From Ferrovum sp. JA12 (GTDB taxonomy: Bacteria; Pseudomonadota; Gammaproteobacteria; Burkholderiales; Ferrovaceae), in the NCBI RefSeq assembly GCF_001431705.1, contig NZ_LJWX01000002.1, positions 563,352 to 587,351 on the forward strand: a stretch of 24,000 nt of DNA, read 5' to 3'. The notes beneath the pieces are model-generated. The model worked only from the letters and a program-made list of their open reading frames with translations, did no database searches and had not been told where the DNA came from. Position numbers and translations under genes: made by a program. Shown in pieces: positions 1,131 to 14,284 of the stretch. Within the stretch, counting starts at the first letter, position 1; each line of letters begins with the position of its first letter.

Positions 1131-1240
1131 GTCTTTTTGTTGCCTATTTTGTTGCCTCTGCTCTCAGCCATATGCGTGTGCATCCGCGTTGCGATACGTC
1201 AGGAGTTGTCGATAACTACCGACAAAACGCAAAGATGGTG

Positions 1241-1530
1241 GTTCCCTTCGCCACCCAATGCCGCAATCCAACCGCTTGATTCATCCGCGCGTAACACTTT
1301 GATCGGTATGGCGCTGACTTGTGGCCTTTGCGGACTTCGGGTTGGATTCGGAGAGCGAAGTCGGAGAGAAGAATGGCTGGGAGAGAGTGGAAAGAGGCCT
1401 TGGGTGGGCACTTTGGCTGATCGGTGAAGTCCGCAGGCTTTCGCACGAACCCTCGTAAACACGCGGGAACTGGCGCCATCGGACAAGAAGAAACCCCAAC
1501 CGAGAACGGTTGAGGTTTCATTATTGGTGG
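1241..1530. repeat. Copy 1 of a 290-bp conserved non-coding terminal region. It ends in a degenerate terminator hairpin followed by TTATTGGTGG.
   Basis: Hand alignment to 13636..13925 gives 217/290 identical positions and no indels. Conserved blocks include CTTTGCGGACTTCGG, CGGAGAGAAGAATGGC, AAGTCCGCAGG, AAACACGCGGGAACTG and CCCCAACCGAGAACGGTTG. Confidence 0.85.
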
Positions 1531-1709
1531 TGGAATCGCCGCCAGGTTCAAACCATGTCTGTTACGTGATTGCGAACATGTGAGGATTGGCGCGGAACAC
1601 CGCGGAATCATAATGTTACTACCCGCCGCTCTCGTGTCTCGTGGCTTTCGCCTCAAATTGGCTCTGTCAACATGTCCCGATCACCAATCAGTTCGATCCC
1701 CGTTTTCGC

Positions 1710-1733: not shown

Positions 1734-2480
1734 TCAAAGCAGCCGCACCGGGCGTGCAATCTTAGGTCTTCGAGCTTGGCTGGCGGTCTGGAGGTTGGCC
1801 GACTTGGAGAGAATCCGCAGGATTGCCTGGCTGTGGTGATAGATCCGAAAGGCATCTGCGACTGCCTTCTCGACGAATGTGGGCGTCGTCTGCCCGTCAG
1901 CGGGTGGGGACACGACTCCGTCTGGGATGTCACCTGACCATCCCCTAGCAGCCCGAAAACCACTAACGATGTGTGAAAAATGCGGCCAGGCGTGATCCAG
2001 ATGGGCGTCGTCGATGCTGACCATCACGCCAGTCAGTTCGCACGCAACCTGCCCCTGAGCATCCCCATGCTCTGCGAAGGCACGCTTCTTGGCCAGAACG
2101 AGGTCGAGCGCCACAGCCTCCCGGCATGCTCCATAGAAGTCTTTTGACCGGTCCCCAGGTAGACCTTTGACGGCCCAGATGTAAGAAAAGTCTGTGGCGG
2201 AACCGTCCTGACGTACGACCCAGAATCCGGAATTGCTCCAGCCAGTACCAGTATTCAAGCGCCGCTCAAAGTAATCGATTTGGCCGCTACCCTTCGTCGG
2301 TTCTCCGACCTCCTCAAGAATCGGGTCATATCGTTCGATGAGGGCAACGAGGTCGGCGTGGTCCCCCGGGTCAGAGATACGATCCCCGTCCTGGTACCGG
2401 TGTAGCAGTGCCTTGTAATGGTCCAGTGCGCTTTTCTGGGTCCGGAAGCTGCGGGGTCCAATCTCGACGGGTTTTGCCAT
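1734..2480 (-). CDS. DUF3223-like protein with a C-terminal HNH-like (DH...P) segment
   Basis: 248-aa ORF with a strong RBS (GAGGAGAGGAAACC-ATG). N-terminal pattern F.T...A...Y..LL.RY..G..I......DL.AL..R...........G.G.I..F......G......F.VVR.DGS..DFSY resembles DUF3223. The C-terminus has CELTG......DDAHLDHAWP.F. The stop is 7 nt from the left direct repeat. Confidence 0.55.
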   Translation of the reverse strand: MAKPVEIGPRSFRTQKSALDHYKALLHRYQDGDRISDPGDHADLVALIERYDPILEEVGEPTKGSGQIDYFERRLNTGTGWSNSGFWVVRQDGSATDFSYIWAVKGLPGDRSKDFYGACREAVALDLVLAKKRAFAEHGDAQGQVACELTGVMVSIDDAHLDHAWPHFSHIVSGFRAARGWSGDIPDGVVSPPADGQTTPTFVEKAVADAFRIYHHSQAILRILSKSANLQTASQARRPKIARPVRLL

Positions 2481-3319: not shown

Positions 3320-3819
3320 TGTTGATTCTCCTTTACGAGAGCAAGGCGGTAGCTGGCCTTGCCCGATTTGACGGTGCGGGCCTTGGCAAACGACTCCTTG
3401 AGCGTTGCAGGCCAGGCGTTGAAACGGGATTCAGAAACCGAGTACTCGATGTCGATGTAGTCGCTGACTTTGTCGCCGGAAGCCGTGATGCGATGAGCAA
3501 TCTCGGCCAGTTGGACCTGATCCCACGCGACACGCTTCGGCACATCGACGGTGATCCGCAGCGGACCGTCATCGAGATGGCAGACGCCGAAATCACGTCC
3601 ATTTGCCTGACGGGCGGCCGTAGCCTGTTCGGCATAACGCTGGTCGAGAGCAGCATGGAAGCGTTCCAGCACACCCTTGATGGCCGACTGCAACGTGAGC
3701 AGATTGGTATGCGTTTCCTGCAACTGCGCTACAGGCAACGCAGCGATCTGAGCGACGCTCATTTCGGCCAGAGGCAGAACGTGGCCGAACACGACATTTG
3801 TGATGGTGGAATCGTTCAT
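3316..3819 (-). CDS. Hypothetical protein (167 aa) with a coiled-coil-like N-terminal half. Middle gene of the AlpA-like operon.
   Basis: Long ORF with a 4-nt start/stop overlap to both neighbours. No motif recognised. Confidence 0.65.
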   Translation of the reverse strand: MNDSTITNVVFGHVLPLAEMSVAQIAALPVAQLQETHTNLLTLQSAIKGVLERFHAALDQRYAEQATAARQANGRDFGVCHLDDGPLRITVDVPKRVAWDQVQLAEIAHRITASGDKVSDYIDIEYSVSESRFNAWPATLKESFAKARTVKSGKASYRLALVKENQQ

Positions 3820-4067
3820 ATGCGATCCCTCCCCGTGGTGGCTGAGGCTGGAACAACCCTAGTGCTCGGACTCTCGTGCAGGCAGTCGAGCTCGAATTGC
3901 TCGATGTCTTCAAGGCGGTACATCACCTTGCCGCCGATCTTGAGGTACCTGGGGCCGACGCCATCGGACCGATAGCGTTCTATGGTGGCTTCCGACTTGT
4001 TCCAGCGATCCGCAAGTTCCCGCTGGGTCAGATGCCTGGTCTTCAGATGTTCGTCATACATTTGCAT
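3816..4067 (-). CDS. AlpA/excisionase-type (MerR-like) HTH DNA-binding protein
   Basis: LTQRELADRWNKSEATIERYRSDGVGPRYLKIGGKVMYRLEDIEQFE is the typical excisionase-family HTH_17 pattern. Start taken at the ATG at 4067, just after AAGGAG (the ATG at 4061 is equally possible). The track start at 4190 is TTG with no RBS. Confidence 0.7.
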   Translation of the reverse strand: MQMYDEHLKTRHLTQRELADRWNKSEATIERYRSDGVGPRYLKIGGKVMYRLEDIEQFELDCLHESPSTRVVPASATTGRDRI

Positions 4068-4207
4068 CTCCTTCGATGATGGGTGTTCACCGGTTGCTGG
4101 TGCCTGGATCAGCACTGCTAACCGATGCGTCCATTTCATCAAGCGAGATGCCCCCGACCGTCCCTCAGATTCCTCAAGATCGTTCCTCAAATTGAATCGG
4201 TGGGTCT

Positions 4208-4249
4208 AAAAAGCAAAAAACCCGGCTGGATTGAAACCAGAGCCGGGTT
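4208..4249 (-). terminator. Rho-independent terminator ending the five-gene minus-strand cluster
   Basis: Minus strand reads AACCCGGCT, 13-nt loop, AGCCGGGTT, then TTTTGCTTTTT. It lies 31 nt downstream of the stop at 4280. Confidence 0.7.
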
Positions 4250-4279: not shown

Positions 4280-5245
4280 TCAGTGCAACCAGTCGCGGTC
4301 GTCGTCAGGAATGATCAGAGCGTAGCGTTCATCGTCGCGCAGGTAACGGATGAATGCCCTGTAGACTTCTGGATTGCGCTCAAACTCCTTGCTGGGTGAA
4401 AACCGCTGGGATTGCGATCCGCAAGCGGTCTTGAGCGATTCCTTATCCAATTCATGATCCAGATCGTCGATCAGTGCAACCAGGATCTTTTGTTGGCGTG
4501 GCTCCAGCGGATACTCGGTACCATCGATGAACGCCTTGGCTTTGTCTCTGACGTAGCGGAGTGTGGTGTTTGGCGATGCCTCATCCAGAATTTGAGGACC
4601 AGGTGCCGATTGGCGCTCAGGGAAAAACTCGAACTTGCTCTGGCCGACGCGGCCAACTGTGAACAGCGGGCGCACGTCGAATTCGGTCAGTGCCGAGCCC
4701 GCCGGAAGCGGTACCTCGCTACTGGTCAAAATGACGCAGGATTGCGTAGTTCTTTCTGTGGTGATCTGTTCGCGCAGGCGAATCGCAATTTCCGGCCGAT
4801 GCAGGCGGCGAGCGAAATACCATGTCACCGGCTTGCCACGCTGTTTCTCGGTCGTGCCGAGCCGCCAGATCAGATCGAGTTCGATCTGCTTCATGCCGTT
4901 GACCGAGAGTTCGAGCCCGTTCAGCAGGCTCGAAACAAATTTCTGCAATGCCACCTTGTAGGTTTCGCGCAAATGCCCAGGTGCCACCACGTCGGCGCAT
5001 TCCGGACAGTGCAGAATAAACTCGCCAGGCGATTTTTCTCGTACCACGTGCGCGGTCTCGATGCCGCATTCCGGGCAAGTGACCCAGTCGAGCGGCTTGC
5101 CCAGCACCAGTACACGTTCACGAAGCAGGTGCGTGGCCGCGACCTTGTCCCGTCCTTCCAAAAGAGACTGCCCATTGATTTCCGGCTTCGCCAGATCCAG
5201 AAGCCGGCAAAACAACGCCGTTGCATCGACCTGCGCCTGACTCAT
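4280..5245 (-). CDS. Hypothetical protein (321 aa) with an N-terminal CxxC...CxxC zinc ribbon. Third gene of an unknown triplet.
   Basis: CPECGIETAHVVREKSPGEFILHCPEC is present. There is no Walker A or recognisable nuclease motif. The ATG overlaps the upstream stop by 4 nt and a terminator follows. Confidence 0.75.
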   Translation of the reverse strand: MSQAQVDATALFCRLLDLAKPEINGQSLLEGRDKVAATHLLRERVLVLGKPLDWVTCPECGIETAHVVREKSPGEFILHCPECADVVAPGHLRETYKVALQKFVSSLLNGLELSVNGMKQIELDLIWRLGTTEKQRGKPVTWYFARRLHRPEIAIRLREQITTERTTQSCVILTSSEVPLPAGSALTEFDVRPLFTVGRVGQSKFEFFPERQSAPGPQILDEASPNTTLRYVRDKAKAFIDGTEYPLEPRQQKILVALIDDLDHELDKESLKTACGSQSQRFSPSKEFERNPEVYRAFIRYLRDDERYALIIPDDDRDWLH

Positions 5246-6150
5246 TCGCCTTCCTCGTCCCCGGTCGAGGCGATCTCAGTCGGCTCGTCTGGCTCGACGA
5301 CATTCAAGGCAAGCAGCACGGCATTGGCGATGGCCTGATTCTGCGCGGACAGGTTCTTGATCGTTGAGGAGCCCGACGAAAATAGATCAAAGCTGAAATA
5401 ATGGTTCTTTCCCTTGTCACGCGTATCTGTATAGACGATGACGCTAGCTCCTTCCATGTTGTATTCCGCCTCGAAGGAGCGATCGACCTTCAGCGCATTG
5501 AGGGCAATCCGGATCGCATCGTCCTGATCCTTGTCGGGGGATGCCTCCACCTGAAAGGCGATTCCAGTACTTCCTGACGGACAGAAACGTGCGCGCCGCA
5601 AGCGGACTTTGTCGATACCGAGGGTCGACCAGTCCTCGAATGGCTCCATCAGCCCGTCGCGCAGGGCATTGAGCTGGTAGCGCTTCTTTTCGATCACCTC
5701 AGGCGTGAGTTCCTGGGCAACGACATGCTTGCCGAACAGTTGCAGCACGGCGGTGTGGTTCTTCGCACCTCCCTTGACGATGGTCTCCACGATGCCTGAG
5801 CCGGGATGGTAGACGATGGCTGTTTCCAGCGCAATGCGGGTCGTGAGTCGCGTAAAATTGTTCTGGGCAAAGTGCGCGAGGGCAGTCACAGGCCCTTCGA
5901 CATAGATCGTGAGTTGAATGCTTTCATCGACCGGGCGCTCGCTGACCTCGATATGGATGCCGTCGCCAGCGCCGTCCTTCTTGTAGAGTTTGGCGACATC
6001 GTGACAGAAAGCCTCGAGTTGGGTGCGGTCGCGCGTGGGGTCGAGTCCCGCCTGGATGCGATGCTTCTTCCAGTACTTGCCATTGGTCTTGGCCTGGAAG
6101 GCGATGTGCAGTTCGGCATCACGGAACGTCTTTTCACGGTTGGTCATCAT
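5242..6150 (-). CDS. Hypothetical protein (302 aa) with an acidic C-terminal tail. Second gene of the unknown triplet.
   Basis: Long ORF with normal amino-acid composition, overlapping both neighbours by 4 nt. No motif recognised. Confidence 0.75.
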   Translation of the reverse strand: MMTNREKTFRDAELHIAFQAKTNGKYWKKHRIQAGLDPTRDRTQLEAFCHDVAKLYKKDGAGDGIHIEVSERPVDESIQLTIYVEGPVTALAHFAQNNFTRLTTRIALETAIVYHPGSGIVETIVKGGAKNHTAVLQLFGKHVVAQELTPEVIEKKRYQLNALRDGLMEPFEDWSTLGIDKVRLRRARFCPSGSTGIAFQVEASPDKDQDDAIRIALNALKVDRSFEAEYNMEGASVIVYTDTRDKGKNHYFSFDLFSSGSSTIKNLSAQNQAIANAVLLALNVVEPDEPTEIASTGDEEGE

Positions 6151-6512
6151 CCAGAGGGCGCTTTCACGCTCGTCGCGCGATGCGAAGTCCTCCTGGAGGC
6201 CTGATCATCGGCACAGGCACAGCGGAATTCCTGAATGGCCAGATTGTTTGACATCATGTGGGCGCGACGCAGGTCATCATGCCAGAGCCACAAATCATGC
6301 TCGATGGCTTTGCGCCCTGTCGGGTCAATAGCGGGATCGCGCAAAGAAGCATCGAGGGCTTCAACCGCATCAGCCACGGCGGCGGGTAGCGTCTCGGGAG
6401 GTTGCGTCCAGTCGACGAGCAGCCTCGCGCCAAGGATATGCCCGTCAGTGAATTCCTGAAGCGTCGGCATCGAGACATGCCGCAGAAAGTGCCGAGCGTT
6501 GAAAACCTTCAT
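6147..6512 (-). CDS. Hypothetical protein (121 aa). First gene of the unknown triplet.
   Basis: ATG at 6512 preceded by AAAGGGGAACAGGA. The stop overlaps the next start (ATGATGA). The last ~25 residues are low-complexity (see finding on a possible split gene). Confidence 0.6.
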   Translation of the reverse strand: MKVFNARHFLRHVSMPTLQEFTDGHILGARLLVDWTQPPETLPAAVADAVEALDASLRDPAIDPTGRKAIEHDLWLWHDDLRRAHMMSNNLAIQEFRCACADDQASRRTSHRATSVKAPSG

Positions 6513-6630: not shown

Positions 6631-7152
6631 CTATGGAATGATGCCCATCCGAATCTTGGTCTTGATGCTCGAAAGCCAGTCTTCCCGGTATTGCAGGGCA
6701 AATGCATCGAGGTTGGCGCGACCGACTCCTGCCTGGCGTGCCAGATATTCCAGAGAGACTGCGCAGTCGAGCCAGCCGAGTGCGTGTGTGGCAATCAATG
6801 CCGCCTTATCGGCGGTGGTCACGACCACGATGGCCGAAGGCAACAGGTTGTTGGCGAGCAGCCAGGCCAGCAGATGCTTCTCACCATCGTCGAGCGTGCC
6901 GCAGGACGGATGGGCGAGTACCACGGACGCCAGTTCCTTGCGCGTCACCGGATGCTGTCCGGCAAGACCTTCGTTCAGTTCGGCAGGAGGAACCGCGATG
7001 TGACGGGGATCAGACGGGTTGCCGGTGAGCGTCTCCTCGACGCACTTCTGAACTGTTTCGATCGCAAAATGGCTGCTGATTGCCGTCCAGCAGCCGGTTC
7101 GAAATGCTTCGAGGATGACGTTGGTATCGGCAAAGACTCGGGTTTTCGGCAT
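6631..7152 (-). CDS. PIN-domain-like nuclease (putative toxin/effector partner of the XRE-ImmA protein)
   Basis: N-terminal VFADTNVILEA, then LDDGEKHLLAW and VVTTADKA, fit the acidic triad spacing of PIN folds. It starts 12 nt after the ImmA gene stop. Confidence 0.65.
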   Translation of the reverse strand: MPKTRVFADTNVILEAFRTGCWTAISSHFAIETVQKCVEETLTGNPSDPRHIAVPPAELNEGLAGQHPVTRKELASVVLAHPSCGTLDDGEKHLLAWLLANNLLPSAIVVVTTADKAALIATHALGWLDCAVSLEYLARQAGVGRANLDAFALQYREDWLSSIKTKIRMGIIP

Positions 7153-7164
7153 ACGGTCCGCACC

Positions 7165-8286
7165 TCATAACTCAAACGGTGCTGGGAGATCGTACTGGGC
7201 GAACAGTTCGGTCAGACCACCAAGACCCAGCCCCATGGCTTTTGCTGCCTTGCGGGCCGACAGTCGTCCATTCTCCAATGACTCGTGCAGCATGCGCACG
7301 AAGGCAACGGAGAACCGCTTGGGGGGGCCTGACACCGAGGGTCGCTGCTTCTCTTGACAGAGATTGCGACGGGTGTCGTCACTGATGAGCTTGAGGTTGA
7401 ACAACCGCCACGCCAATGCCACCGGCGCCACGCGCAGCAGCGCTGCGACTTCGCACAGGTGGGGGATGTCATCCCGGCGATTGCCATCGATCAGTTGGGT
7501 CAATGAAATGCGCGGCATCAACAGGGCAGCGGCAAAGTTGTTCGCCAATTGCTCGATGCGTTTTCCCTTGTTGCGTTCCTCGATGGAATTCGATTCCCGA
7601 TGATCGGGTTGCATCGCATCCCAGGTGAGCGCATGAAAAAGCTCGTGCGCCAGATCGTAGTAGCGACGCGCCTCGCTCTCGTTGCGGTTGATGAGTATGA
7701 CGCCCATTTCCTCGAGGTGGCATGTCGCACCCGAGATGGATTGTCCTTCGCCAGCGTCAACCGTATCGACGAACAGCACCGGGATGTCCAGTTCGCGCTC
7801 GATCTTGTCGATCAGGGTTTCTGCCGGAATGATACCCAGGTCCAGTTCGGCAACGAGACTCTCTGCACGATCCTGTGCATCCTCGAACGATGACTGGGCA
7901 GACAGACGCAACGCGCGCTTGAGCACGCTTGCCCGGCCGCCTTGCCGTTCACGCAGCCAGCGGAGCAGGCCAATCCACTGACCAGCCTTCAATTCGAACC
8001 CGTCCAGACTGTCCTCAGGAACCTCGGGTGCCGTCCGCCACGAGAACTGTGCTTCTCCAGCCACGGCAAAAGGATCCACGAAAAACTCGATGTCACGATC
8101 CAGGAGGTCGGACAGCGCCAGCAGTTCCTCGGGCTTCAGCGCGCGCTTGCCGTTTTCGATGTCAGAAATCGACTGGCGGTCGTTCAGGCCCAATTCCTGG
8201 GTGAGTTGATCCTGCGTCCAGCCCGCCGCATCGCGCGCGGCTTTGACGCGGTAGCCGATCAATTTTTGCGAAATCTTTTCGAGCAT
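7165..8286 (-). CDS. XRE-family HTH fused to an ImmA/IrrE (COG2856, M78) zinc metallopeptidase domain
   Basis: The N-terminus GWTQDQLTQELGLNDRQSISDIENGKRALKPEELLALSDLL is an XRE HTH. The core has YDLAHELFHAL (HExxH) followed by EQLANNFAAALLMP, the ImmA/IrrE signature. Confidence 0.9.
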   Translation of the reverse strand: MLEKISQKLIGYRVKAARDAAGWTQDQLTQELGLNDRQSISDIENGKRALKPEELLALSDLLDRDIEFFVDPFAVAGEAQFSWRTAPEVPEDSLDGFELKAGQWIGLLRWLRERQGGRASVLKRALRLSAQSSFEDAQDRAESLVAELDLGIIPAETLIDKIERELDIPVLFVDTVDAGEGQSISGATCHLEEMGVILINRNESEARRYYDLAHELFHALTWDAMQPDHRESNSIEERNKGKRIEQLANNFAAALLMPRISLTQLIDGNRRDDIPHLCEVAALLRVAPVALAWRLFNLKLISDDTRRNLCQEKQRPSVSGPPKRFSVAFVRMLHESLENGRLSARKAAKAMGLGLGGLTELFAQYDLPAPFEL

Positions 8287-8305: not shown

Positions 8306-8334
8306 ATTTTAGTATTGCGTATTTAGAAAGGCAA
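8306..8334 (-). promoter_or_regulatory. Candidate sigma70 promoter for the XRE-ImmA cluster
   Basis: Minus strand reads TTGCCT (8334..8329), 17 nt, TAAAAT (8311..8306), ~20 nt upstream of GGGGG-N5-ATG at 8286. It sits in an AT-rich divergent intergenic region with GTATTT(T)AG direct repeats. Confidence 0.4.
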
Positions 8335-8745: not shown

Positions 8746-9231
8746 ATGAGCAAGAAAACCGTAGTCTCAGGCGTGATCGGCCGAATCGCGCACCTGCCCG
8801 ACACACCATTCGAAGAAATCAAATCGCTGTGGCAACAGATTTTCGCCACCCCCATGCCCACGCACAACCGTCAGTTTCTGGAACGGCGTATTGCCTACCG
8901 ACTGCAGGAAATCGAGTTTCGCAAAATTGATCGTAACCTGATGGATCGGAATGACCGTCGCATCAAAACCATCATAGAAACGGGCCAGAACAAAAAGCGC
9001 GATCGCGATCACCGTCCGGTTGCCGGTACATTGTTGACTCGGGAGTACAAGGGAGTAATTCACAAAGTGGTGGCAACCCCCGATGGTCAATATGACTTTC
9101 AGGGGCGTATGTACCCAAGCCTCTCCATGATTGCACGGGAGATCACCGGGACACGGTGGTCTGGTCCATTGTTCTTCGGGCTCAAGCCGTCAGCTACGAA
9201 ACCCACCTCCAAGAAAGGAGGTTGTCGATGA
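8746..9231 (+). CDS. DUF2924-like protein (usual partner of large serine recombinases)
   Basis: FLERRIAYRLQE ... G..L.REYKG..H.V......G.Y.F.GR.Y.SLS.IAREITGTRWSGPLFFGLK matches my recollection of DUF2924. The stop overlaps the recombinase ATG (ATGA), and AAAGGAGG lies inside its 3' end. Confidence 0.75.
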   Translation: MSKKTVVSGVIGRIAHLPDTPFEEIKSLWQQIFATPMPTHNRQFLERRIAYRLQEIEFRKIDRNLMDRNDRRIKTIIETGQNKKRDRDHRPVAGTLLTREYKGVIHKVVATPDGQYDFQGRMYPSLSMIAREITGTRWSGPLFFGLKPSATKPTSKKGGCR

Positions 9232-10583
9232 GCGAAGCACTGAAACGCCGTATGCGCTGCGCGGTCTACACGCGCAAGTCCACCGACGAGGGGCTGGACC
9301 AGGAATACAACTCGATCGACGCACAACGTGATGCGGGGCATGCCTACATCGCCAGCCAGCGCGCCGAGGGATGGATTCCGGTGGCAGACGACTACGATGA
9401 TCCGGCCTTCTCGGGCGGCAACATGGAACGCCCATCGCTGCGACGATTGATGGCCGACATCGAGGCCGGCAAGATCGATGTGGTCGTCATCTACAAGATC
9501 GACCGCCTGACGCGCAGCCTCGCGGACTTCTCCAAGATGGTCGAGGTGTTCGAGCGCTATGGCGTGTCGTTCGTGTCGGTCACCCAGCAATTCAACACCA
9601 CCACGTCGATGGGGCGGCTGATGTTGAACATCCTGCTGTCCTTCGCACAGTTCGAGCGCGAGGTCACCGGCGAGCGCATCCGCGACAAGATCGCCGCCAG
9701 TAAGCGCAAGGGCATGTGGATGGGCGGCGTGCCTCCCCTCGGTTACGACGTCGAGAACCGCCGACTGGTGCCCAACGAACGTGAGGCCAAGCTCATCCGG
9801 CACATCTTCCAGCGCTTCGTTGAACTGGGCTCCAGCACGATGCTGTTCAAGGAGCTGAAGCTCGACGGCGTGACGTCCAAGGCGTGGACCACGCAGGACG
9901 GCAAGACCCGAGACGGCAAGCCGATCGACAAGGGGCTGATCTACAAGCTGCTCAACAACCGGACCTACCTCGGTGAACTGCGCCACAAGGAGCAGTGGTA
10001 CCAGGCCGAGCATCCACCGATCATCGACCGAGAGTTGTGGGACAAGGTGCACGCCATCCTCGCCACCAACGGTCGGGTTCGCGGCAACGCCACCCGGGCG
10101 ACGGTGCCGTACCTGCTCAAGGGCATCGTGTTCGGCAACGACGGTCGCGCCTTGTCGCCGTTTCACACCACCAAGAAGAACGGTCGCCGCTACCGCTACT
10201 ACGTGCCGCAGCGCGAGAACAAGGAGCACGCGGGCGCGTCTGGGCTGCCACGGCTGCCGGCTGCAGAGCTTGAGTCCGCCGTGCTGGACCAACTGCGCGC
10301 GGTCCTGCGATCGCCGGATCTCCTGGGCGACGTCCTGCCACGAGCGATCGAACTCGACCCCAGCCTCGACGAGGCGAAGGTCACCGTCGCCATGACGCGG
10401 CTCGACGCCATATGGGAGCAGCTCTTCCCAGCCGAGCAGACGCGCATCGTCAAGCTGCTGGTCGAGAAGGTGATCGTGTCGCCCAACGACCTGGAAGTGC
10501 GGCTGCGCGCCAACGGCATCGAGCGTCTGGTGCTGGAACTGCAGCCAGCCGGCGCGGCCCAGCCCGAGGAGGCATTGGCATGA
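9228..10583 (+). CDS. Large serine recombinase (resolvase/invertase catalytic domain plus recombinase domain)
   Basis: CAVYTRKSTDEG contains the catalytic Ser context. Also present: DRLTRSL, GVSFVSVTQQFNTTTSMGRLMLNILLSFAQFEREVTGERIRDK, and GGVPPLGYD of the recombinase domain. 451 aa from the ATG at 9228. Confidence 0.95.
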   Translation: MSEALKRRMRCAVYTRKSTDEGLDQEYNSIDAQRDAGHAYIASQRAEGWIPVADDYDDPAFSGGNMERPSLRRLMADIEAGKIDVVVIYKIDRLTRSLADFSKMVEVFERYGVSFVSVTQQFNTTTSMGRLMLNILLSFAQFEREVTGERIRDKIAASKRKGMWMGGVPPLGYDVENRRLVPNEREAKLIRHIFQRFVELGSSTMLFKELKLDGVTSKAWTTQDGKTRDGKPIDKGLIYKLLNNRTYLGELRHKEQWYQAEHPPIIDRELWDKVHAILATNGRVRGNATRATVPYLLKGIVFGNDGRALSPFHTTKKNGRRYRYYVPQRENKEHAGASGLPRLPAAELESAVLDQLRAVLRSPDLLGDVLPRAIELDPSLDEAKVTVAMTRLDAIWEQLFPAEQTRIVKLLVEKVIVSPNDLEVRLRANGIERLVLELQPAGAAQPEEALA

Positions 10584-11029
10584 GCGAGATCCGCATCCAG
10601 AAGACGGGCGAGCCCGACGTCATCGAGGCCAGTGATGGGCGGCTGACTTTGTCGGTGCCGATCCAGATCAAGCGGCGCAGCGGGCGCAAGCTGGTCACGC
10701 TGCCGATCGACCCGGTGACGGGCGAACCAGCCAAGGCCAGACCCTGGGACACGGCCACCACGCCGTTGCAACTGGCGCTGGCCAGGGGTCACCGCTGGCT
10801 GGCCATGCTGGAGTCGGGCGAGGCCAAGTCCCTCAAGGAGATCGCCGCCCGGGAAGGGATCGACAACAGCTACGTCAGCCGGATGGTCAACCTGACCACG
10901 CTGGCACCCGACATCGTGGCGGCCATCCTGGACGATGCATTGCCGAACCACGTCACGCTGTTTGATCTGGCGGTTGATCCGCCAGCGCTGTGGGATGAGC
11001 AGCGGGCGAGACTTACAGTGAGCGGTTGA
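10580..11029 (+). CDS. HTH-type accessory protein downstream of the serine recombinase (possible directionality or targeting factor)
   Basis: The ATG overlaps the recombinase stop (ATGA). The C-terminal 85 aa are conserved in the paralogue at 3..263. The IAAREGIDNSYVSRMVNLTTLAPDIVAAIL segment looks like an HTH. Confidence 0.75.
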   Translation: MSEIRIQKTGEPDVIEASDGRLTLSVPIQIKRRSGRKLVTLPIDPVTGEPAKARPWDTATTPLQLALARGHRWLAMLESGEAKSLKEIAAREGIDNSYVSRMVNLTTLAPDIVAAILDDALPNHVTLFDLAVDPPALWDEQRARLTVSG

Positions 11030-11031
11030 TG

Positions 11032-11949
11032 CTACGTGACCAGGTCAGCTGTCAGCTTTTCCACCAACTCATTCGTGCTCGGCGCGTACGTTGGCAGCTG
11101 TCGCTGTGCTTGTCGAAATATCCCGACAAGTAAGCACGCCGTGAAGAGCCAGTAGTGCGACTCCTTGGCGAGCGGGCTGCCGGATATCATCGTCTGGATG
11201 CGCGTAGTAATCGGCGGATATTCCGCTGTTCCCCACCGAGCGCTTTCCGGGGTTATTTCGTGCAAGATCATTGCACCGAGTGCGATTCCCATTGATCGCT
11301 TATCCAGAACCCTTCTGAAAGCCTGGCCAACAGACTGGGCATAGTTTCCAATCTTGTCGGTCAGAAATGACCTTGCCCAGACATCGCATGCAATCTCTTC
11401 TTCGCGCCGGTCGGCGGGGTAGTCGCCGTCACTGAGAAATTTCACGTGCCGAAGTTCATGAAGAAAGACATAGGCGGTCGCCAGACAGACTAAGTCGAAA
11501 GCCGCCATTTCTTGATGGCTGCCGAGCGTTTCTCTATCGGCTTCAGGACGCGGAACATCTTGCGGCCAGGTGGTGTGCACCGAACTTTGCCCTTCGATGA
11601 TCGATCGAGCTGAATTTGAGCGAGACCTGTAATCCATCTCGAAAGAAGCAAGCTCGCCATCGGCGCGCAGTATGTCTTCAAGGGCCCCACCAGTGATGCC
11701 GGCGAGAATGATCGCTGGAGAGTACGTCTCGATTGATCTCCACCCATTGAAACCGAGCAGCCAGATTGCCTCGAGTGTCTTGTGGTCAAACTGGATGCGA
11801 CCCTTGCCCGCGCTGATGTTCACGCCTCGAGCGTCGTCGACTAGGCAGATCTTGGGTGCATAGCGATCCCATAGGTCCTCAATGTCTTGTTTTCGCTCAG
11901 GCGTGGCGCCTTGCAGCAGAGCCTTAACAGCGATGACTGCTTCAACCAT
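11032..11949 (-). CDS. HExxH zinc-metallopeptidase-like protein (305 aa), possibly Lit/peptidase-U49-like. Coupled to AbiEii.
   Basis: Start taken at the ATG at 11949 (MVEAVIAVKALL...), which overlaps the AbiEii stop (ATGGTTGA). It has YVFLHELRHVKF at residues 161-172 and EEEIACDVWARSFL ~20 aa later. The longer track ORF (to 12039) would run antisense-free but overlaps abiEii by ~100 nt. Confidence 0.6.
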   Translation of the reverse strand: MVEAVIAVKALLQGATPERKQDIEDLWDRYAPKICLVDDARGVNISAGKGRIQFDHKTLEAIWLLGFNGWRSIETYSPAIILAGITGGALEDILRADGELASFEMDYRSRSNSARSIIEGQSSVHTTWPQDVPRPEADRETLGSHQEMAAFDLVCLATAYVFLHELRHVKFLSDGDYPADRREEEIACDVWARSFLTDKIGNYAQSVGQAFRRVLDKRSMGIALGAMILHEITPESARWGTAEYPPITTRIQTMISGSPLAKESHYWLFTACLLVGIFRQAQRQLPTYAPSTNELVEKLTADLVT

Positions 11950-12964
11950 TGCTGCACCCATTGATCGTTGTTTCCAGCGCGCGCAGACGATCGGCGATGG
12001 CGTCGAAGGCGGGTGGCTCGCCGATGAACATGCCGGCACCGATCATGCGCTGGAAGTCATCGCGCAGCGCGGCCAGTGCGGCATCTTCCGGAATGAGTCT
12101 GAGCTGCCCGGCCAGGCATGCGTCGTAGTTGGCGTAGCTCGCGTTGTAGAAGACCTTTTTGTGCTTGACGACATCCGCGAGCAGAGCGCGATCGGCCAGA
12201 GCGGCTTGCCCATGGGCAAGATCAGCCAGCATGGCCAGGTCGTACCAGTGGCGTGACAAACGTTCGGCGCCAGTACGGAACTCGTCGCGCTGACACTCGA
12301 CGTGCATCAACGTCGCCTTCTCCCAGAAGGTACGCGCCGGGGACAGCACACTGACCTTCGAACGAGGAAAATCGAGCGCAGCGACATGCTCCGCGATGTC
12401 GGGCCGTACCTCATGCTTTTCGTTCGGCTCGGTGATGTTGCGACCACCGAACTCAATCAGGACGCTGTTGCCAACGTAGTCCCCCGGCGCATCAAGCACG
12501 GTCGGGTAGTGCACACGCAACTGCTCGCCGTCATCGCTGACTTCAAGCTGGAATGCGCCGGCATCGAACTCGGCTGCCAGTGTCCGCTGAAAGTGCGGTG
12601 CCACAACACCATGAGCATGATCGCGCACGAAGGACTTGAGATCCTCGCTGAATTTTTTCAGCCGATTGCGCGAGACGCCTTCGGCAAACGGATCGAAGGA
12701 ACCGTCCAAGCCACGGTAGTCGAGCGTGATGTCCACGTCTTCGGAGAAGCGTGCGATGGCTCCGAACACTTTGGATAGCGAGGTGCCACCCTTGAAGGCC
12801 ATCGGAAGTCGGCCGGGCATGGTGAACAGGGTCTGCAGCACCCAGCAGACCCAGACATCTTTTTCCAGGACTACGGGCGAGCGGGCAAGCTGCGGAGCCA
12901 GTGCCCGATAGATTTGGGACTGCTCTTGAGCTTTCAGGTGCAGGAAGGACTCAGGCATGAACAA
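11942..12964 (-). CDS. AbiEii/AbiGii-family nucleotidyltransferase toxin (DUF1814)
   Basis: EKDVWVCWVL..LF.......AFKGGTSLSK......RFSEDVDITLD is the characteristic N-terminal NTase motif of AbiEii. It overlaps the AbiEi gene by 14 nt. Confidence 0.85.
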   Translation of the reverse strand: MFMPESFLHLKAQEQSQIYRALAPQLARSPVVLEKDVWVCWVLQTLFTMPGRLPMAFKGGTSLSKVFGAIARFSEDVDITLDYRGLDGSFDPFAEGVSRNRLKKFSEDLKSFVRDHAHGVVAPHFQRTLAAEFDAGAFQLEVSDDGEQLRVHYPTVLDAPGDYVGNSVLIEFGGRNITEPNEKHEVRPDIAEHVAALDFPRSKVSVLSPARTFWEKATLMHVECQRDEFRTGAERLSRHWYDLAMLADLAHGQAALADRALLADVVKHKKVFYNASYANYDACLAGQLRLIPEDAALAALRDDFQRMIGAGMFIGEPPAFDAIADRLRALETTINGCSNG

Positions 12965-13571
12965 CCGTCCGCTCGCTCCGGAAGATGGCGTCGCTCATCC
13001 ATGCGGGCATTGAACTGGTGGCTGACTTCAGCACCCCGAATTCGCTTGATCCCAGCTTGCGCCGAATCTTCTCGACGAGAGCCGGCGTTACTTCCGTCTT
13101 GCCGAGGTACCACATCGCCGCAAGCGCGAGCCCGGCGGGTCGACCCGCCAAGGCCAACTTGCGCTGACAGACGTGCTGCAGACGGATCTCCATCTTCCCT
13201 ACGCGGATGCGCTTCGACGGGCCGGATGTCACGAATACCGACTGGGTCGGAACCTGCGTGGTCAGCTCGAGCCGACGCGCCGCTTCGGCACCGTGAACCT
13301 GGACGACGGCGCCAGTGGTCTTGGCGACCGTCTCGGCGACCTTCAAAGGCGAGGGACTAACCTTGCCGACGAAACGGCTAACCTCGGGGCGCACGAAGAC
13401 GCCGCGCGTCACACGCTCAATCGATCCTGCTTTGACGAGGCGGGAGAGGGTCTGATCGACGGACGCGCGCGTGCCGCACTCCAGGAATGCCGTTGGGGTG
13501 AAGGGCTCCCCAATCGGCATCGTCTCGATGCGCTGGCGAATCAGCTCGGCGGTCTTGGTCGTCGTGTTCAT
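12951..13571 (-). CDS. AbiEi-family (type IV TA) antitoxin / transcriptional regulator
   Basis: Start taken at the ATG at 13571 (MNTTTKTAELIRQRIETMPIGEPFTPTAFLECGTRASVDQTLSRLVKAGSIERVTRGVFVRP). This is the typical AbiEi N-terminal wHTH. The track ORF extension to 14024 crosses the terminator and tmRNA and is an artefact. Confidence 0.85.
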   Translation of the reverse strand: MNTTTKTAELIRQRIETMPIGEPFTPTAFLECGTRASVDQTLSRLVKAGSIERVTRGVFVRPEVSRFVGKVSPSPLKVAETVAKTTGAVVQVHGAEAARRLELTTQVPTQSVFVTSGPSKRIRVGKMEIRLQHVCQRKLALAGRPAGLALAAMWYLGKTEVTPALVEKIRRKLGSSEFGVLKSATSSMPAWMSDAIFRSERTVVHA

Positions 13572-13578
13572 GTATGAA

Positions 13579-13607
13579 AATATACGTGAGTTTCTGACAA
13601 ACAGCAA
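13579..13607 (-). promoter_or_regulatory. Candidate abiEi promoter giving a leaderless or near-leaderless mRNA
   Basis: Minus strand reads TTGCTG (13607..13602), 17 nt, TATATT (13584..13579), then only 7 nt (TTCATAC) before the ATG. There is no Shine-Dalgarno sequence. Confidence 0.45.
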
Positions 13608-13635
13608 GTGTGATGACTCACAGGGAGATGCTCGT

Positions 13636-13925
13636 GTTCCCTCCGGCAGCCAATGCTGCAATCCAACCGATTGAACGGTCCGCGCGTAACCCGTTGATTT
13701 CAAGGGGTGCCGGACCGGGTCTTTGCGGACTTCGGCGCATTCGCGGAGAGCGAGGCCGGAGAGAAGAATGGCCAGGAGAGAGCGAAAGGTTGCCGAGAAC
13801 GGGCCAGATGGCCGACCGGCCAAGTCCGCAGGTTTCCGCAGGAACCCGCGCAAACACGCGGGAACTGTCGCTGTCAGACGAGAAAAAGCCCCAACCGAGA
13901 ACGGTTGGGGCTTCGTTATTGGTGG
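13636..13925. repeat. Copy 2 of the 290-bp conserved non-coding terminal region. Includes the tmRNA terminator and the last bases of the tmRNA.
   Basis: See copy 1. Offset is exactly 12,395 nt, with 217/290 identities by hand count and no indels. Confidence 0.85.
13878..13912 (-). terminator. Rho-independent terminator of ssrA, carried on the island side
   Basis: Minus strand has the 11-bp stem AGCCCCAACCG/CGGTTGGGGCT with a 4-nt loop, followed by TTTTTCTCGTC. It starts 7 nt after the tmRNA CCA end. Confidence 0.75.
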
Positions 13926-14284
13926 AGGCGGCGGGAATCGAACCCGCGTCCGAAAGTCCTCTGCAGTCAGCTCTACATATTTAGCCTCGTTGTTGAATTT
14001 AACCACTAATACGTCAACGGACAAGCGGCTTAGTGACGATTCACCATAATTTTAATTCAGGAGGAGGTGACCCCCTCAAGAACGATTCTCTGTATATGAC
14101 TCCGCTACTTGGTTTCCCAAGCTCCAACCCAGAAGAACAATTGGTGCGGAGCCTAGCCTTAAGCGGCTAGGGCGTAGTTGTCGTCGTTGGCAACTATAAG
14201 TTTACCAGATGGATTTACGAGGTTTACTGGTCCTCGATATGCACTGAACTGTTTTGCAACCCCCGTCGAAGCCAGGTCGCCCCC
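13920..14284 (-). ncRNA. ssrA: tmRNA (transfer-messenger RNA)
   Basis: 5' end GGGGGCGACCTGGCTTCGACGGGGGTTGC. 3' end GGACGCGGGTTCGATTCCCGCCGCCTCCACCA. The acceptor stem GGGGGCG/CGCCTCC has the G3:U pair. The tag reading frame GCC AAC GAC GAC AAC TAC GCC CTA GCC GCT TAA (14191..14159) encodes ANDDNYALAA. Confidence 0.95.
13936..13952. repeat. Right copy of the 17-bp direct repeat, inside the tmRNA T-arm region
   Basis: Exact match to 1710..1726. Confidence 0.8.

Follow-up and report, generated by a model that had tools for sequence, protein, structure and literature searches.

Here we describe two adjacent genes, A and B, from a 24,000-nucleotide (nt) stretch of the Ferrovum sp. JA12 genome (contig NZ_LJWX01000002.1, positions 563,352 to 587,351; hereafter the window). 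They represent two uncharacterized families without a Pfam entry and evidently form a core module of a phage family, not the cargo of a defense island. In these phages the pair lies between a damage-sensing repressor and a subgroup-specific array of direct repeats in front of the early operon. We tentatively propose, with slightly less than even confidence, that A and B are a damage-induced activator of the phage early operon and thus the output stage of the lysis-lysogeny switch. The copy in the window appears to be an inactive or crippled relic, since A is frameshifted and the phage to be controlled is gone.

An earlier note, made from the sequence of the window, described the locus as three overlapping minus-strand open reading frames (ORFs). 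Their coordinates, lengths and ATGA overlaps at both junctions (ORF1/ORF2 and ORF2/ORF3) hold (Table 1), but they amount to only two genes: A, the restored 423-amino-acid (aa) gene composed of ORF1 and ORF2, and B, which is ORF3. ORF1 and ORF2 are evidently a single gene broken by a one-base deletion. The conceptual ORF1-ORF2 fusion (423 aa) aligns end to end with more than 200 proteins of 405-433 aa, and the closest full-length homolog is 92% identical, ungapped and exactly 423 aa long. PHROG 37634, a 416-position profile, matches ORF1 with positions 1-54 and ORF2 with positions 110-410, and the ORF2 frame is open for 19 codons 5′ of its ATG, up to a TGA inside ORF1. In a DNA alignment with the intact locus L001, one G is absent from the window (CAGGCC[G]TCCAGG, 6198/6197), at a site that is not a homopolymer and that falls in the N-terminal helical domain of the protein. 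The shifted frame runs into a TGA within the conserved Trp-Met-Met codons TGGATGATG. As ORF1 and ORF2 are halves of one gene, their ATGA overlap is accidental. A is in frame in all close relatives other than a second, 100%-identical assembly. Programmed frameshifting was ruled out because close relatives are in frame and no slippery heptamer is found around CAG GCC TCC AGG. A sequencing or assembly artefact was also considered; the second public assembly, which is 100% identical over 7.85 kb, calls the same split, although it may come from the same sample and is not fully independent.

A is encoded in 56 reference-genome loci and 74 IMG/VR viral contigs, the longer of which are 42-52 kb. The relatives of the window element are full temperate phages with terminase, portal and P4-family primase genes, mostly in Betaproteobacteria, and their integration is often at tmRNA. 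A tblastn search of 50,697 GenBank phage records with A and B gave no match, i.e., no isolated phage there carries either gene. The layout of the family is conserved. The 205-aa gene, a large serine recombinase and DUF2924 are on one strand, and the repressor, A, B, the terminator, HTH_17, a 160-aa gene, BRO-N, AAA_24 and the P4-family primase are on the divergent strand, with terminase and portal genes farther along. Synteny of the integration module is kept in >100 loci. Using profile searches, A was detected in 109 of 113 slots (96%) and A together with B in 104, which agrees with the earlier description of a tight, co-occurring unit in a mobile element; among loci found through the recombinase alone, 40/44 bear A. 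The absence of tblastn matches in the recombinase-anchored scan had suggested an accessory cassette, an idea overturned by the hidden Markov model profile searches. An alternative protein of 409-500 aa in the A slot is a distant A homolog (profile E down to 1e-11), and slot proteins of ~750 aa are natural A-B fusions whose N-terminal halves, where scored, match A (E 1e-6 to 1e-9) and whose C-terminal halves match B (E down to 5e-13). A and B thus appear to work as one unit, which is a single polypeptide in some phages.

The cargo that flanks the pair, before A or after B, includes a complete cyclic oligonucleotide-based antiphage signaling system (CBASS), AbiE, RES, HNH, AAA_15 and the effector popP1, and the pair stays in place. 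The defense setting emphasized earlier is genuine to the extent that known defense genes are inserted on both sides in relatives, but it does not extend to the pair, which is kept regardless of cargo. Cargo hotspots were seen in L090 (slot), L059 (12517-16470), L135 (18559-19665) and L042/L043/L046/L128; the CBASS cargo comprises a cyclase, E1-E2 and a phospholipase, the AbiE cargo consists of AbiEi/AbiEii, and popP1 is a type III effector. The A and B subfamilies are 23-28% identical while the recombinase stays at 55-94%.

The gene upstream of A is typically a damage sensor. In 64 of 91 distinct loci the gene immediately before A encodes a repressor with LexA_DNA_bind and Peptidase_S24 domains, and the gap between the two is mostly 8-30 bp. 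Other sibling loci have a divergent full-length CapP (4.5e-73) and an adjacent HTH_3 protein, which most likely accounts for the CapH matches (4.9e-31); CapH/CapP is divergent from A-B in 13 loci. Further types in the repressor slot are a separate M78/HTH pair and, in the window, a fused XRE-ImmA gene with a 173-aa companion. Repressor-protease modules of the CapH/CapP and ImmR/ImmA kinds are known to respond to DNA damage (10.1101/2022.04.27.489752). They and DdrO/IrrE compare with the upstream regulators in sibling loci and are not counterparts of A-B. The window XRE-ImmA gene occupies the position held by S24 or CapH/CapP in sibling phages; unlike CapH/CapP, it fuses both functions and runs in the same direction as A-B. 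In PADLOC its product matched RmrA (1.2e-26, residues 13-363), capP (6.9e-19) and also the capH model. A promoter-like site was detected upstream of this gene at 8306-8334, and none was detected in the 118-bp gap upstream of ORF1, where the earlier note had likewise seen no convincing one.

The promoter of the repressor itself carries, in S24-type loci, a GAAC-N4-GTTC palindrome directly beside a TATAAT-like box. This palindrome was found at the repressor 5′ end in 40 of 45 loci (for example, L013, ~26 nt 5′ of the repressor start at 9401, and L035, L036 and L029), with just 48 sites across 645 kb, and never upstream of HTH_17. Since the operator is confined to the repressor-A-B promoter, the evident target of the damage sensor is the repressor-A-B operon itself. 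We take the palindrome with its TATAAT-like box to be a Gram-positive-type LexA box; the box expected for LexA of a betaproteobacterial host is CTGT-N8-ACAG. The Gram-positive-type box indicates that the phage-borne LexA-like repressor has a private operator. In L003 (41-1231) and L004 (8682-9968), a UmuC/ImpB-type Y-family polymerase (IMS, E 1.8e-39) is found directly upstream of A with no repressor there, which ties the pair to the SOS response once more.

Downstream of B, a conserved order was found in 42 aligned loci: the terminator, four direct repeats within ~46 bp, an inverted repeat, and the Shine-Dalgarno (SD) sequence and start of HTH_17. The terminator, already recognized after ORF3 in the earlier note, is kept in 42 distinct loci as the element ACCCGG...CCGGGTTTTTTGC. 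The repeat 7-mer varies by subgroup (TGAGGAA, TGCAGAA, TGTGAAG, GCGTAAC, TGAGTAG, CCATAAA or TCCGGAG). Each 10-21-kb locus has a single repeat cluster (chance expectation <=0.15), and where cargo is inserted after B, the cluster remains with HTH_17. We propose that the array is a putative binding site for B at the early-operon promoter. The arms of the inverted repeat co-vary, with 5/6 pairs changed on both sides and 62.7% of cells paired vs 54.6% in shuffles; it may serve another regulator as its operator or form an RNA hairpin in the 5′ untranslated region. The true start of HTH_17 is the ATG at 4061, preceded by the SD sequence AAGGAG and supported by the gene call of the 100%-identical L136, and not the TTG at 4190. 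We also rejected a sigma-54 promoter for the early operon, as its GG/GC elements lack conservation. In the window taken alone, no repeat was convincing as a shared operator, hence the need for a comparative approach.

To relate the array to the proteins, array divergence was compared with protein divergence by Spearman correlation over 861 locus pairs, with bootstraps over loci. The correlation is highest for the C-terminal part of B (rho 0.72 for residues 280-312 and 0.68 for residues 226-321), followed by the B middle domain (0.57), A (0.53), the recombinase (0.47), HTH_17 (0.42), the B N-terminus (0.38) and p167 (0.23). The B C-terminal domain ranks above HTH_17 in 99.7% of bootstraps, above the B N-terminus in 99% and above the recombinase in 95%. 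HTH_17 was rejected as the best array-binder: the window HTH_17 is 76% identical to that of L016, which has different repeats, and 45% identical to that of L008, which has the same repeats.

B, for which 224 homologs were found, consists of N-terminal helices, a CxxC-N19-CxxC zinc ribbon, an alpha/beta middle domain and a C-terminal winged helix (~residues 232-310). In the AlphaFold2 (AF2) model (predicted local distance difference test, pLDDT, 89), the C-terminal ~90 residues resemble the DNA-binding domains of CadC, ArlR, OmpR and ToxR (Foldseek TMt 0.47-0.51, probability 0.8-0.97), and we predict a winged helix of the OmpR/CadC/ToxR type. The earlier note had pointed to both a zinc ribbon and a winged-helix-like C-terminus in this protein; the former is confirmed by Cys57/60/80/83, invariant among 62 homologs, and the latter agrees with the model. 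The OmpR-type winged-helix family binds tandem direct repeats. B would share with OmpR/PhoB-family proteins the superposing C-terminus and a candidate target of this kind; unlike them, it has no receiver domain or membrane anchor and carries a zinc ribbon and a middle domain. Searches with ORF1-3 in Pfam, NCBIfam and PADLOC returned nothing apart from weak zinc-ribbon matches. In PADLOC-DB 2.0, candidate systems included, 0 families matched ORF1, ORF2 or ORF3 at E<=1, and the PADLOC check, which the earlier note had suggested for the island, thus revealed no defense-system component among these three ORFs. Its description of the proteins as uncharacterized is correct, as neither Pfam, NCBIfam, PADLOC nor PDB sequences gave a match, deep profiles included.

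The predicted structure of A (AF2 pLDDT 82) combines helices in the N-terminal domain with a body rich in beta structure. The only significant PDB matches of the model are CENP-N/Chl4 and E. coli RdgC (Foldseek, E 3e-5 to 1.4e-4, probability 0.99-1.0), and a BFVD structure search returned phage proteins annotated as RdgC-like. We predict that A, in its beta-rich part, belongs to the RdgC/CENP-N fold class. Among the Foldseek PDB and BFVD matches listed, none is RexA. The superfamily comprises 447 cluster representatives among 1.84 billion. At the sequence level, A has no similarity to RexA, RdgC, Pfam families or PDB chains, even using a profile of 61 diverse members. Neither A nor these 61 superfamily members has a Pfam match that would place them in the RdgC family, and PDB sequence searches with deep family profiles (A2, A3, A8) gave nothing meaningful. 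Alignment of A-family profiles with lambda RexA using hhalign gave a probability of 0.2-0.3%, i.e., no signal, and a protein search with a deliberately divergent alignment (A7) recovered the close family only and no new remote members. No polar or catalytic residues are conserved across the superfamily. Many RefSeq/UniRef records from Ralstonia, Nitrosomonas, Undibacterium and Rhodoferax name A homologs "glycine hydroxymethyltransferase" (e.g., P0031, P0056, P0059; L135 20001-21296). This name is wrong. Pfam finds no serine hydroxymethyltransferase or pyridoxal phosphate-enzyme domain in A or 61 diverse relatives, and the predicted fold of A is unrelated; given the lack of this or any other Pfam domain in the 61 members, the RefSeq name is a propagated annotation error.

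Taken together, these features could be accommodated in a regulatory cascade. In the lysogen, a damage-sensing repressor (a LexA-like S24 protein, a CapH/CapP pair or a fused XRE-ImmA protein) would keep the A-B operon low. DNA damage would remove the repressor, and A and B would be made. The OmpR-type winged helix of B would then bind the four direct repeats just 5′ of the early operon and switch on HTH_17, p167, BRO-N, AAA_24, the primase and so on. A, with its RdgC/CENP-N/RexA-class fold, would be the partner of B on DNA. The same logic is seen, by analogy, in SXT/R391, where the CI/LexA-like damage-cleavable repressor SetR holds down a two-subunit activator of mobilization genes, SetCD (PMC4344509, PMC4542580). 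A-B differs in being unrelated to the FlhDC-like SetCD, in belonging to a phage and not a conjugative element, and in that its activating role is inferred.

Several points weigh against this cascade. Damage-inducibility, binding of the array by B, activation and the role of A are steps that we infer. The S24-type operon is co-directional with its repressor, as in lambda cI-rexAB, and could equally be expressed in lysogeny. No clear -10/-35 elements are seen at the proposed target promoter. The co-variation of the array with B could partly reflect physical linkage because the B 3′ end is ~100 bp from the array; the B C-terminal domain tops A in only 86% of bootstraps, and a residue-level match between the putative recognition helix of B and the repeat class is only suggestive. 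The Foldseek E-values of the B winged-helix matches are 0.09 or worse, and the Pfam OmpR-type model Trans_reg_C does not match the B C-terminus (E<=1). The fold matches of A have low TM-scores (0.17-0.29 on the query), and unlike RdgC and CENP-N/Chl4, with which it has no sequence similarity, A is acidic overall (net charge -16).

The position of the pair also invites comparison with lambda rexAB. Like rexAB, A-B lies directly 3′ of a CI/LexA-family repressor in an operon that ends at a terminator, and the best structural matches of the A model, CENP-N/Chl4 and RdgC, fall in the fold class reported for RexA, a DNA-binding protein that has this class in common with IML3/CHL4 and RdgC and that favors the lytic side of the switch (PMC11077077). 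A-B could accordingly serve in Rex-like exclusion or abortive infection, under the control of the repressor or co-expressed with it, with A sensing foreign or damaged DNA and B as effector or regulator. The divergent CapH/CapP genes, which regulate CBASS and other immune operons (10.1101/2022.04.27.489752), the defense cargo clustered on both sides and the fast divergence of the subfamilies relative to the recombinase would all suit such a role, which we nonetheless consider unlikely. Unlike accessory defense genes, A-B is found in 96% of the lineage whatever the cargo, is sometimes fused, and, unlike rexAB, has a LexA-type operator at the operon promoter. A, at 423 aa, has an extra N-terminal helical domain and no sequence similarity to RexA, RexA is not among the structure matches listed for A, and neither protein matches PADLOC. 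B is a soluble zinc-ribbon/winged-helix protein, whereas RexB is a multi-pass membrane protein: the maximum 19-aa hydropathy of B is 0.98 with no window >1.6, compared with 2.39 and 51 such windows in lambda RexB. Indeed, no membrane segment is found in A or B, no effector domain or conserved polar residue is seen, and a Rex-like role would leave the subgroup-specific array at the early promoter unexplained. One could instead imagine a new, soluble exclusion or abortive-infection module, triggered by DNA damage and without a membrane effector, in which the RdgC/CENP-N-fold subunit senses phage or damaged DNA and which, wired to the three interchangeable sensors (LexA-like, CapH/CapP and ImmA), became fixed in the lineage by protecting the lysogen, but we find this improbable. 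A regulatory core function fits the anatomy, a pair between a damage-sensing repressor and a subgroup-specific early-promoter array, better than a defense system does. This location, and the lack of conserved catalytic residues and membrane segments, also speak against the accessory anti-phage or addiction module envisaged in the earlier note.

Another possibility is that A-B tunes the switch without activating transcription, as an RdgC-like brake on RecA-dependent repressor cleavage, a RexA-like stabilizer of the lytic state or a directionality factor for the serine recombinase. The predicted fold of A is RdgC-like; RecA-dependent cleavage of LexA is inhibited by RdgC, and RexA tips the lambda switch to the lytic side (PMC11077077). 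The DUF2924-recombinase operon is the divergent neighbor of the pair, and expression timed by DNA damage would be fitting for an excision factor. We regard these roles as distinctly unlikely, since the pair is also found next to ImmA/CapP-type sensors, which work without S24 self-cleavage, the A/B subfamilies do not obviously follow recombinase similarity, and the winged helix of B and its co-varying array point to sequence-specific DNA binding. Finally, the four repeats could be origin iterons, bound by A-B as a replication initiator or by the P4-family primase. Replication origins typically contain short tandem direct repeats, and the P4-family primase-helicase of these phages has a P4 homolog that binds 8-bp iterons. 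The array, however, sits between the terminator and the SD sequence and start of the early operon, moves with that operon, and is kept in a 12-kb remnant without a primase; in the 9 loci with a complete primase, the only ones that allow the comparison, it tracks the B C-terminal domain (0.72) above the primase C-terminus (0.46). An origin is thus a highly improbable explanation, and activation of the early operon by A-B is the reading that we retain.

The genomic context of the pair in the window is a decayed prophage remnant (~12 kb) that appears to have integrated at the transfer-messenger RNA (tmRNA) gene, and not the generic defense island of the earlier note. A 17-nt core of the tmRNA 3′ end, AATCGAACCCGCGTCCG (13936-13952), is exactly repeated at 1710-1726 and bounds a ~12.2-kb element. 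GC content falls from ~0.6 to ~0.45 at the tmRNA boundary, and everything to the right of the tmRNA gene in the window is host housekeeping genes. Of 19 relatives checked, 7 also have tmRNA next to the recombinase end. The remnant no longer has replication or structural genes, and its BRO-N is shortened to 115 aa vs ~251 aa in relatives. The neighbors named earlier, XRE-ImmA, AbiEi/AbiEii, GNAT-TacA and BRO-N, are as described. The exception is the 173-aa protein (p173), labeled "PIN", which has no Pfam, PADLOC, NCBIfam or PHROG match and does not resemble the PIN_3 proteins encoded at sibling loci. It co-occurs with XRE-ImmA with or without the cluster-1 pair, and has one moderately hydrophobic stretch (maximum hydropathy 1.81). 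When XRE-ImmA/p173 was tested as a RosmerTA system, the RmrA-type helix-turn-helix and M78 component was present and p173 had no match to PADLOC models; the two could be either a RosmerTA-like toxin-antitoxin pair or a phage immunity module.

Between the recombinase module and the tmRNA attachment site, beside the AbiE pair, lies a Peptidase_U49 gene, which we take to belong to the family of the Lit phage-exclusion protease. The N-terminal ~100 codons of AbiEi are probably spurious because the annotated ORF start overlaps the tmRNA gene. The DUF3223 protein has no HamA or HamB gene nearby, and its sole homolog found in related loci is located in L192, past the 205-aa gene. In the window, the C-terminus of the 205-aa gene is present once more at the far left (3-266; 78% identity), which indicates a second related element in tandem at ssrA. 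The AbiEi-like ORF is similar in its N-terminal part to a 146-aa protein, with shared tblastn matches in L026, L137, L139, L140 and L142; this protein may represent an AbiEi N-terminal domain, duplicated or truncated, of the tandem second element.

Table 1. Positions of the A-B module and neighboring features in the window.
Feature	Position	Strand	Remarks
Gene A, disrupted	5242..6512	-	1-nt deletion between 6198 and 6197
ORF1	6147..6512	-	121 aa; A residues 1-104 plus out-of-frame 17-aa tail
ORF2	5242..6150	-	302 aa; A residues 122-423
Gene B (ORF3)	4280..5245	-	321 aa
Rho-independent terminator	4208..4249	-	Stem 4221-4241 plus T-run; closes repressor-A-B operon
Direct-repeat array	4151..4189	-	TGAGGAA / TGAGGAA / TGAGGGA / TCGGGGG (fourth degenerate); spacings 13, 9, 10 nt
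Inverted repeat	4099..4118	-	Between repeat array and HTH_17 start; same position in L008, L016, L026, L083, L089 etc.
HTH_17 (AlpA/excisionase-like)	3816..4061	-	81 aa; first early-operon gene; Pfam HTH_17
173-aa protein	6631..7152	-	Always accompanies XRE-ImmA gene
Fused XRE helix-turn-helix and M78 (ImmA/IrrE/CapP-like) peptidase	7165..8286	-	373 aa; Pfam HTH_3, Peptidase_M78
DUF2924	8746-9231	+	Integration module (whole module 8746..11029, divergent); Pfam
Large serine recombinase	9156-10583	+	Integration module; Pfam
205-aa protein	10412-11029	+	Integration module
Peptidase_U49 protein	11032-12039	-	
AbiEii	11942-12964		
AbiEi	12951-14024	-	Pfam match starts at residue 162
tmRNA gene, attachment site	13920..14284	-	ARAGORN; at GC break
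DUF3223 protein	1734-2480	-	PADLOC HamC2/HamC 7.8e-82, full length
146-aa protein	1216-1656	-	

For annotation, the lesson is that a "defense island" can turn out to be the remains of a prophage, in which the conserved genes of unknown function are probably regulatory and not defensive. The near-universal A-B unit sits at the decision point of a widespread prophage group, which includes prophages of the plant pathogen Ralstonia solanacearum with type III effector and defense cargo. If the proposed cascade is true, it would be a new molecular implementation of prophage induction and a natural experiment in which three unrelated damage sensors have been plugged into one output module, and it would provide a second functional context for the RdgC/RexA/CENP-N fold.

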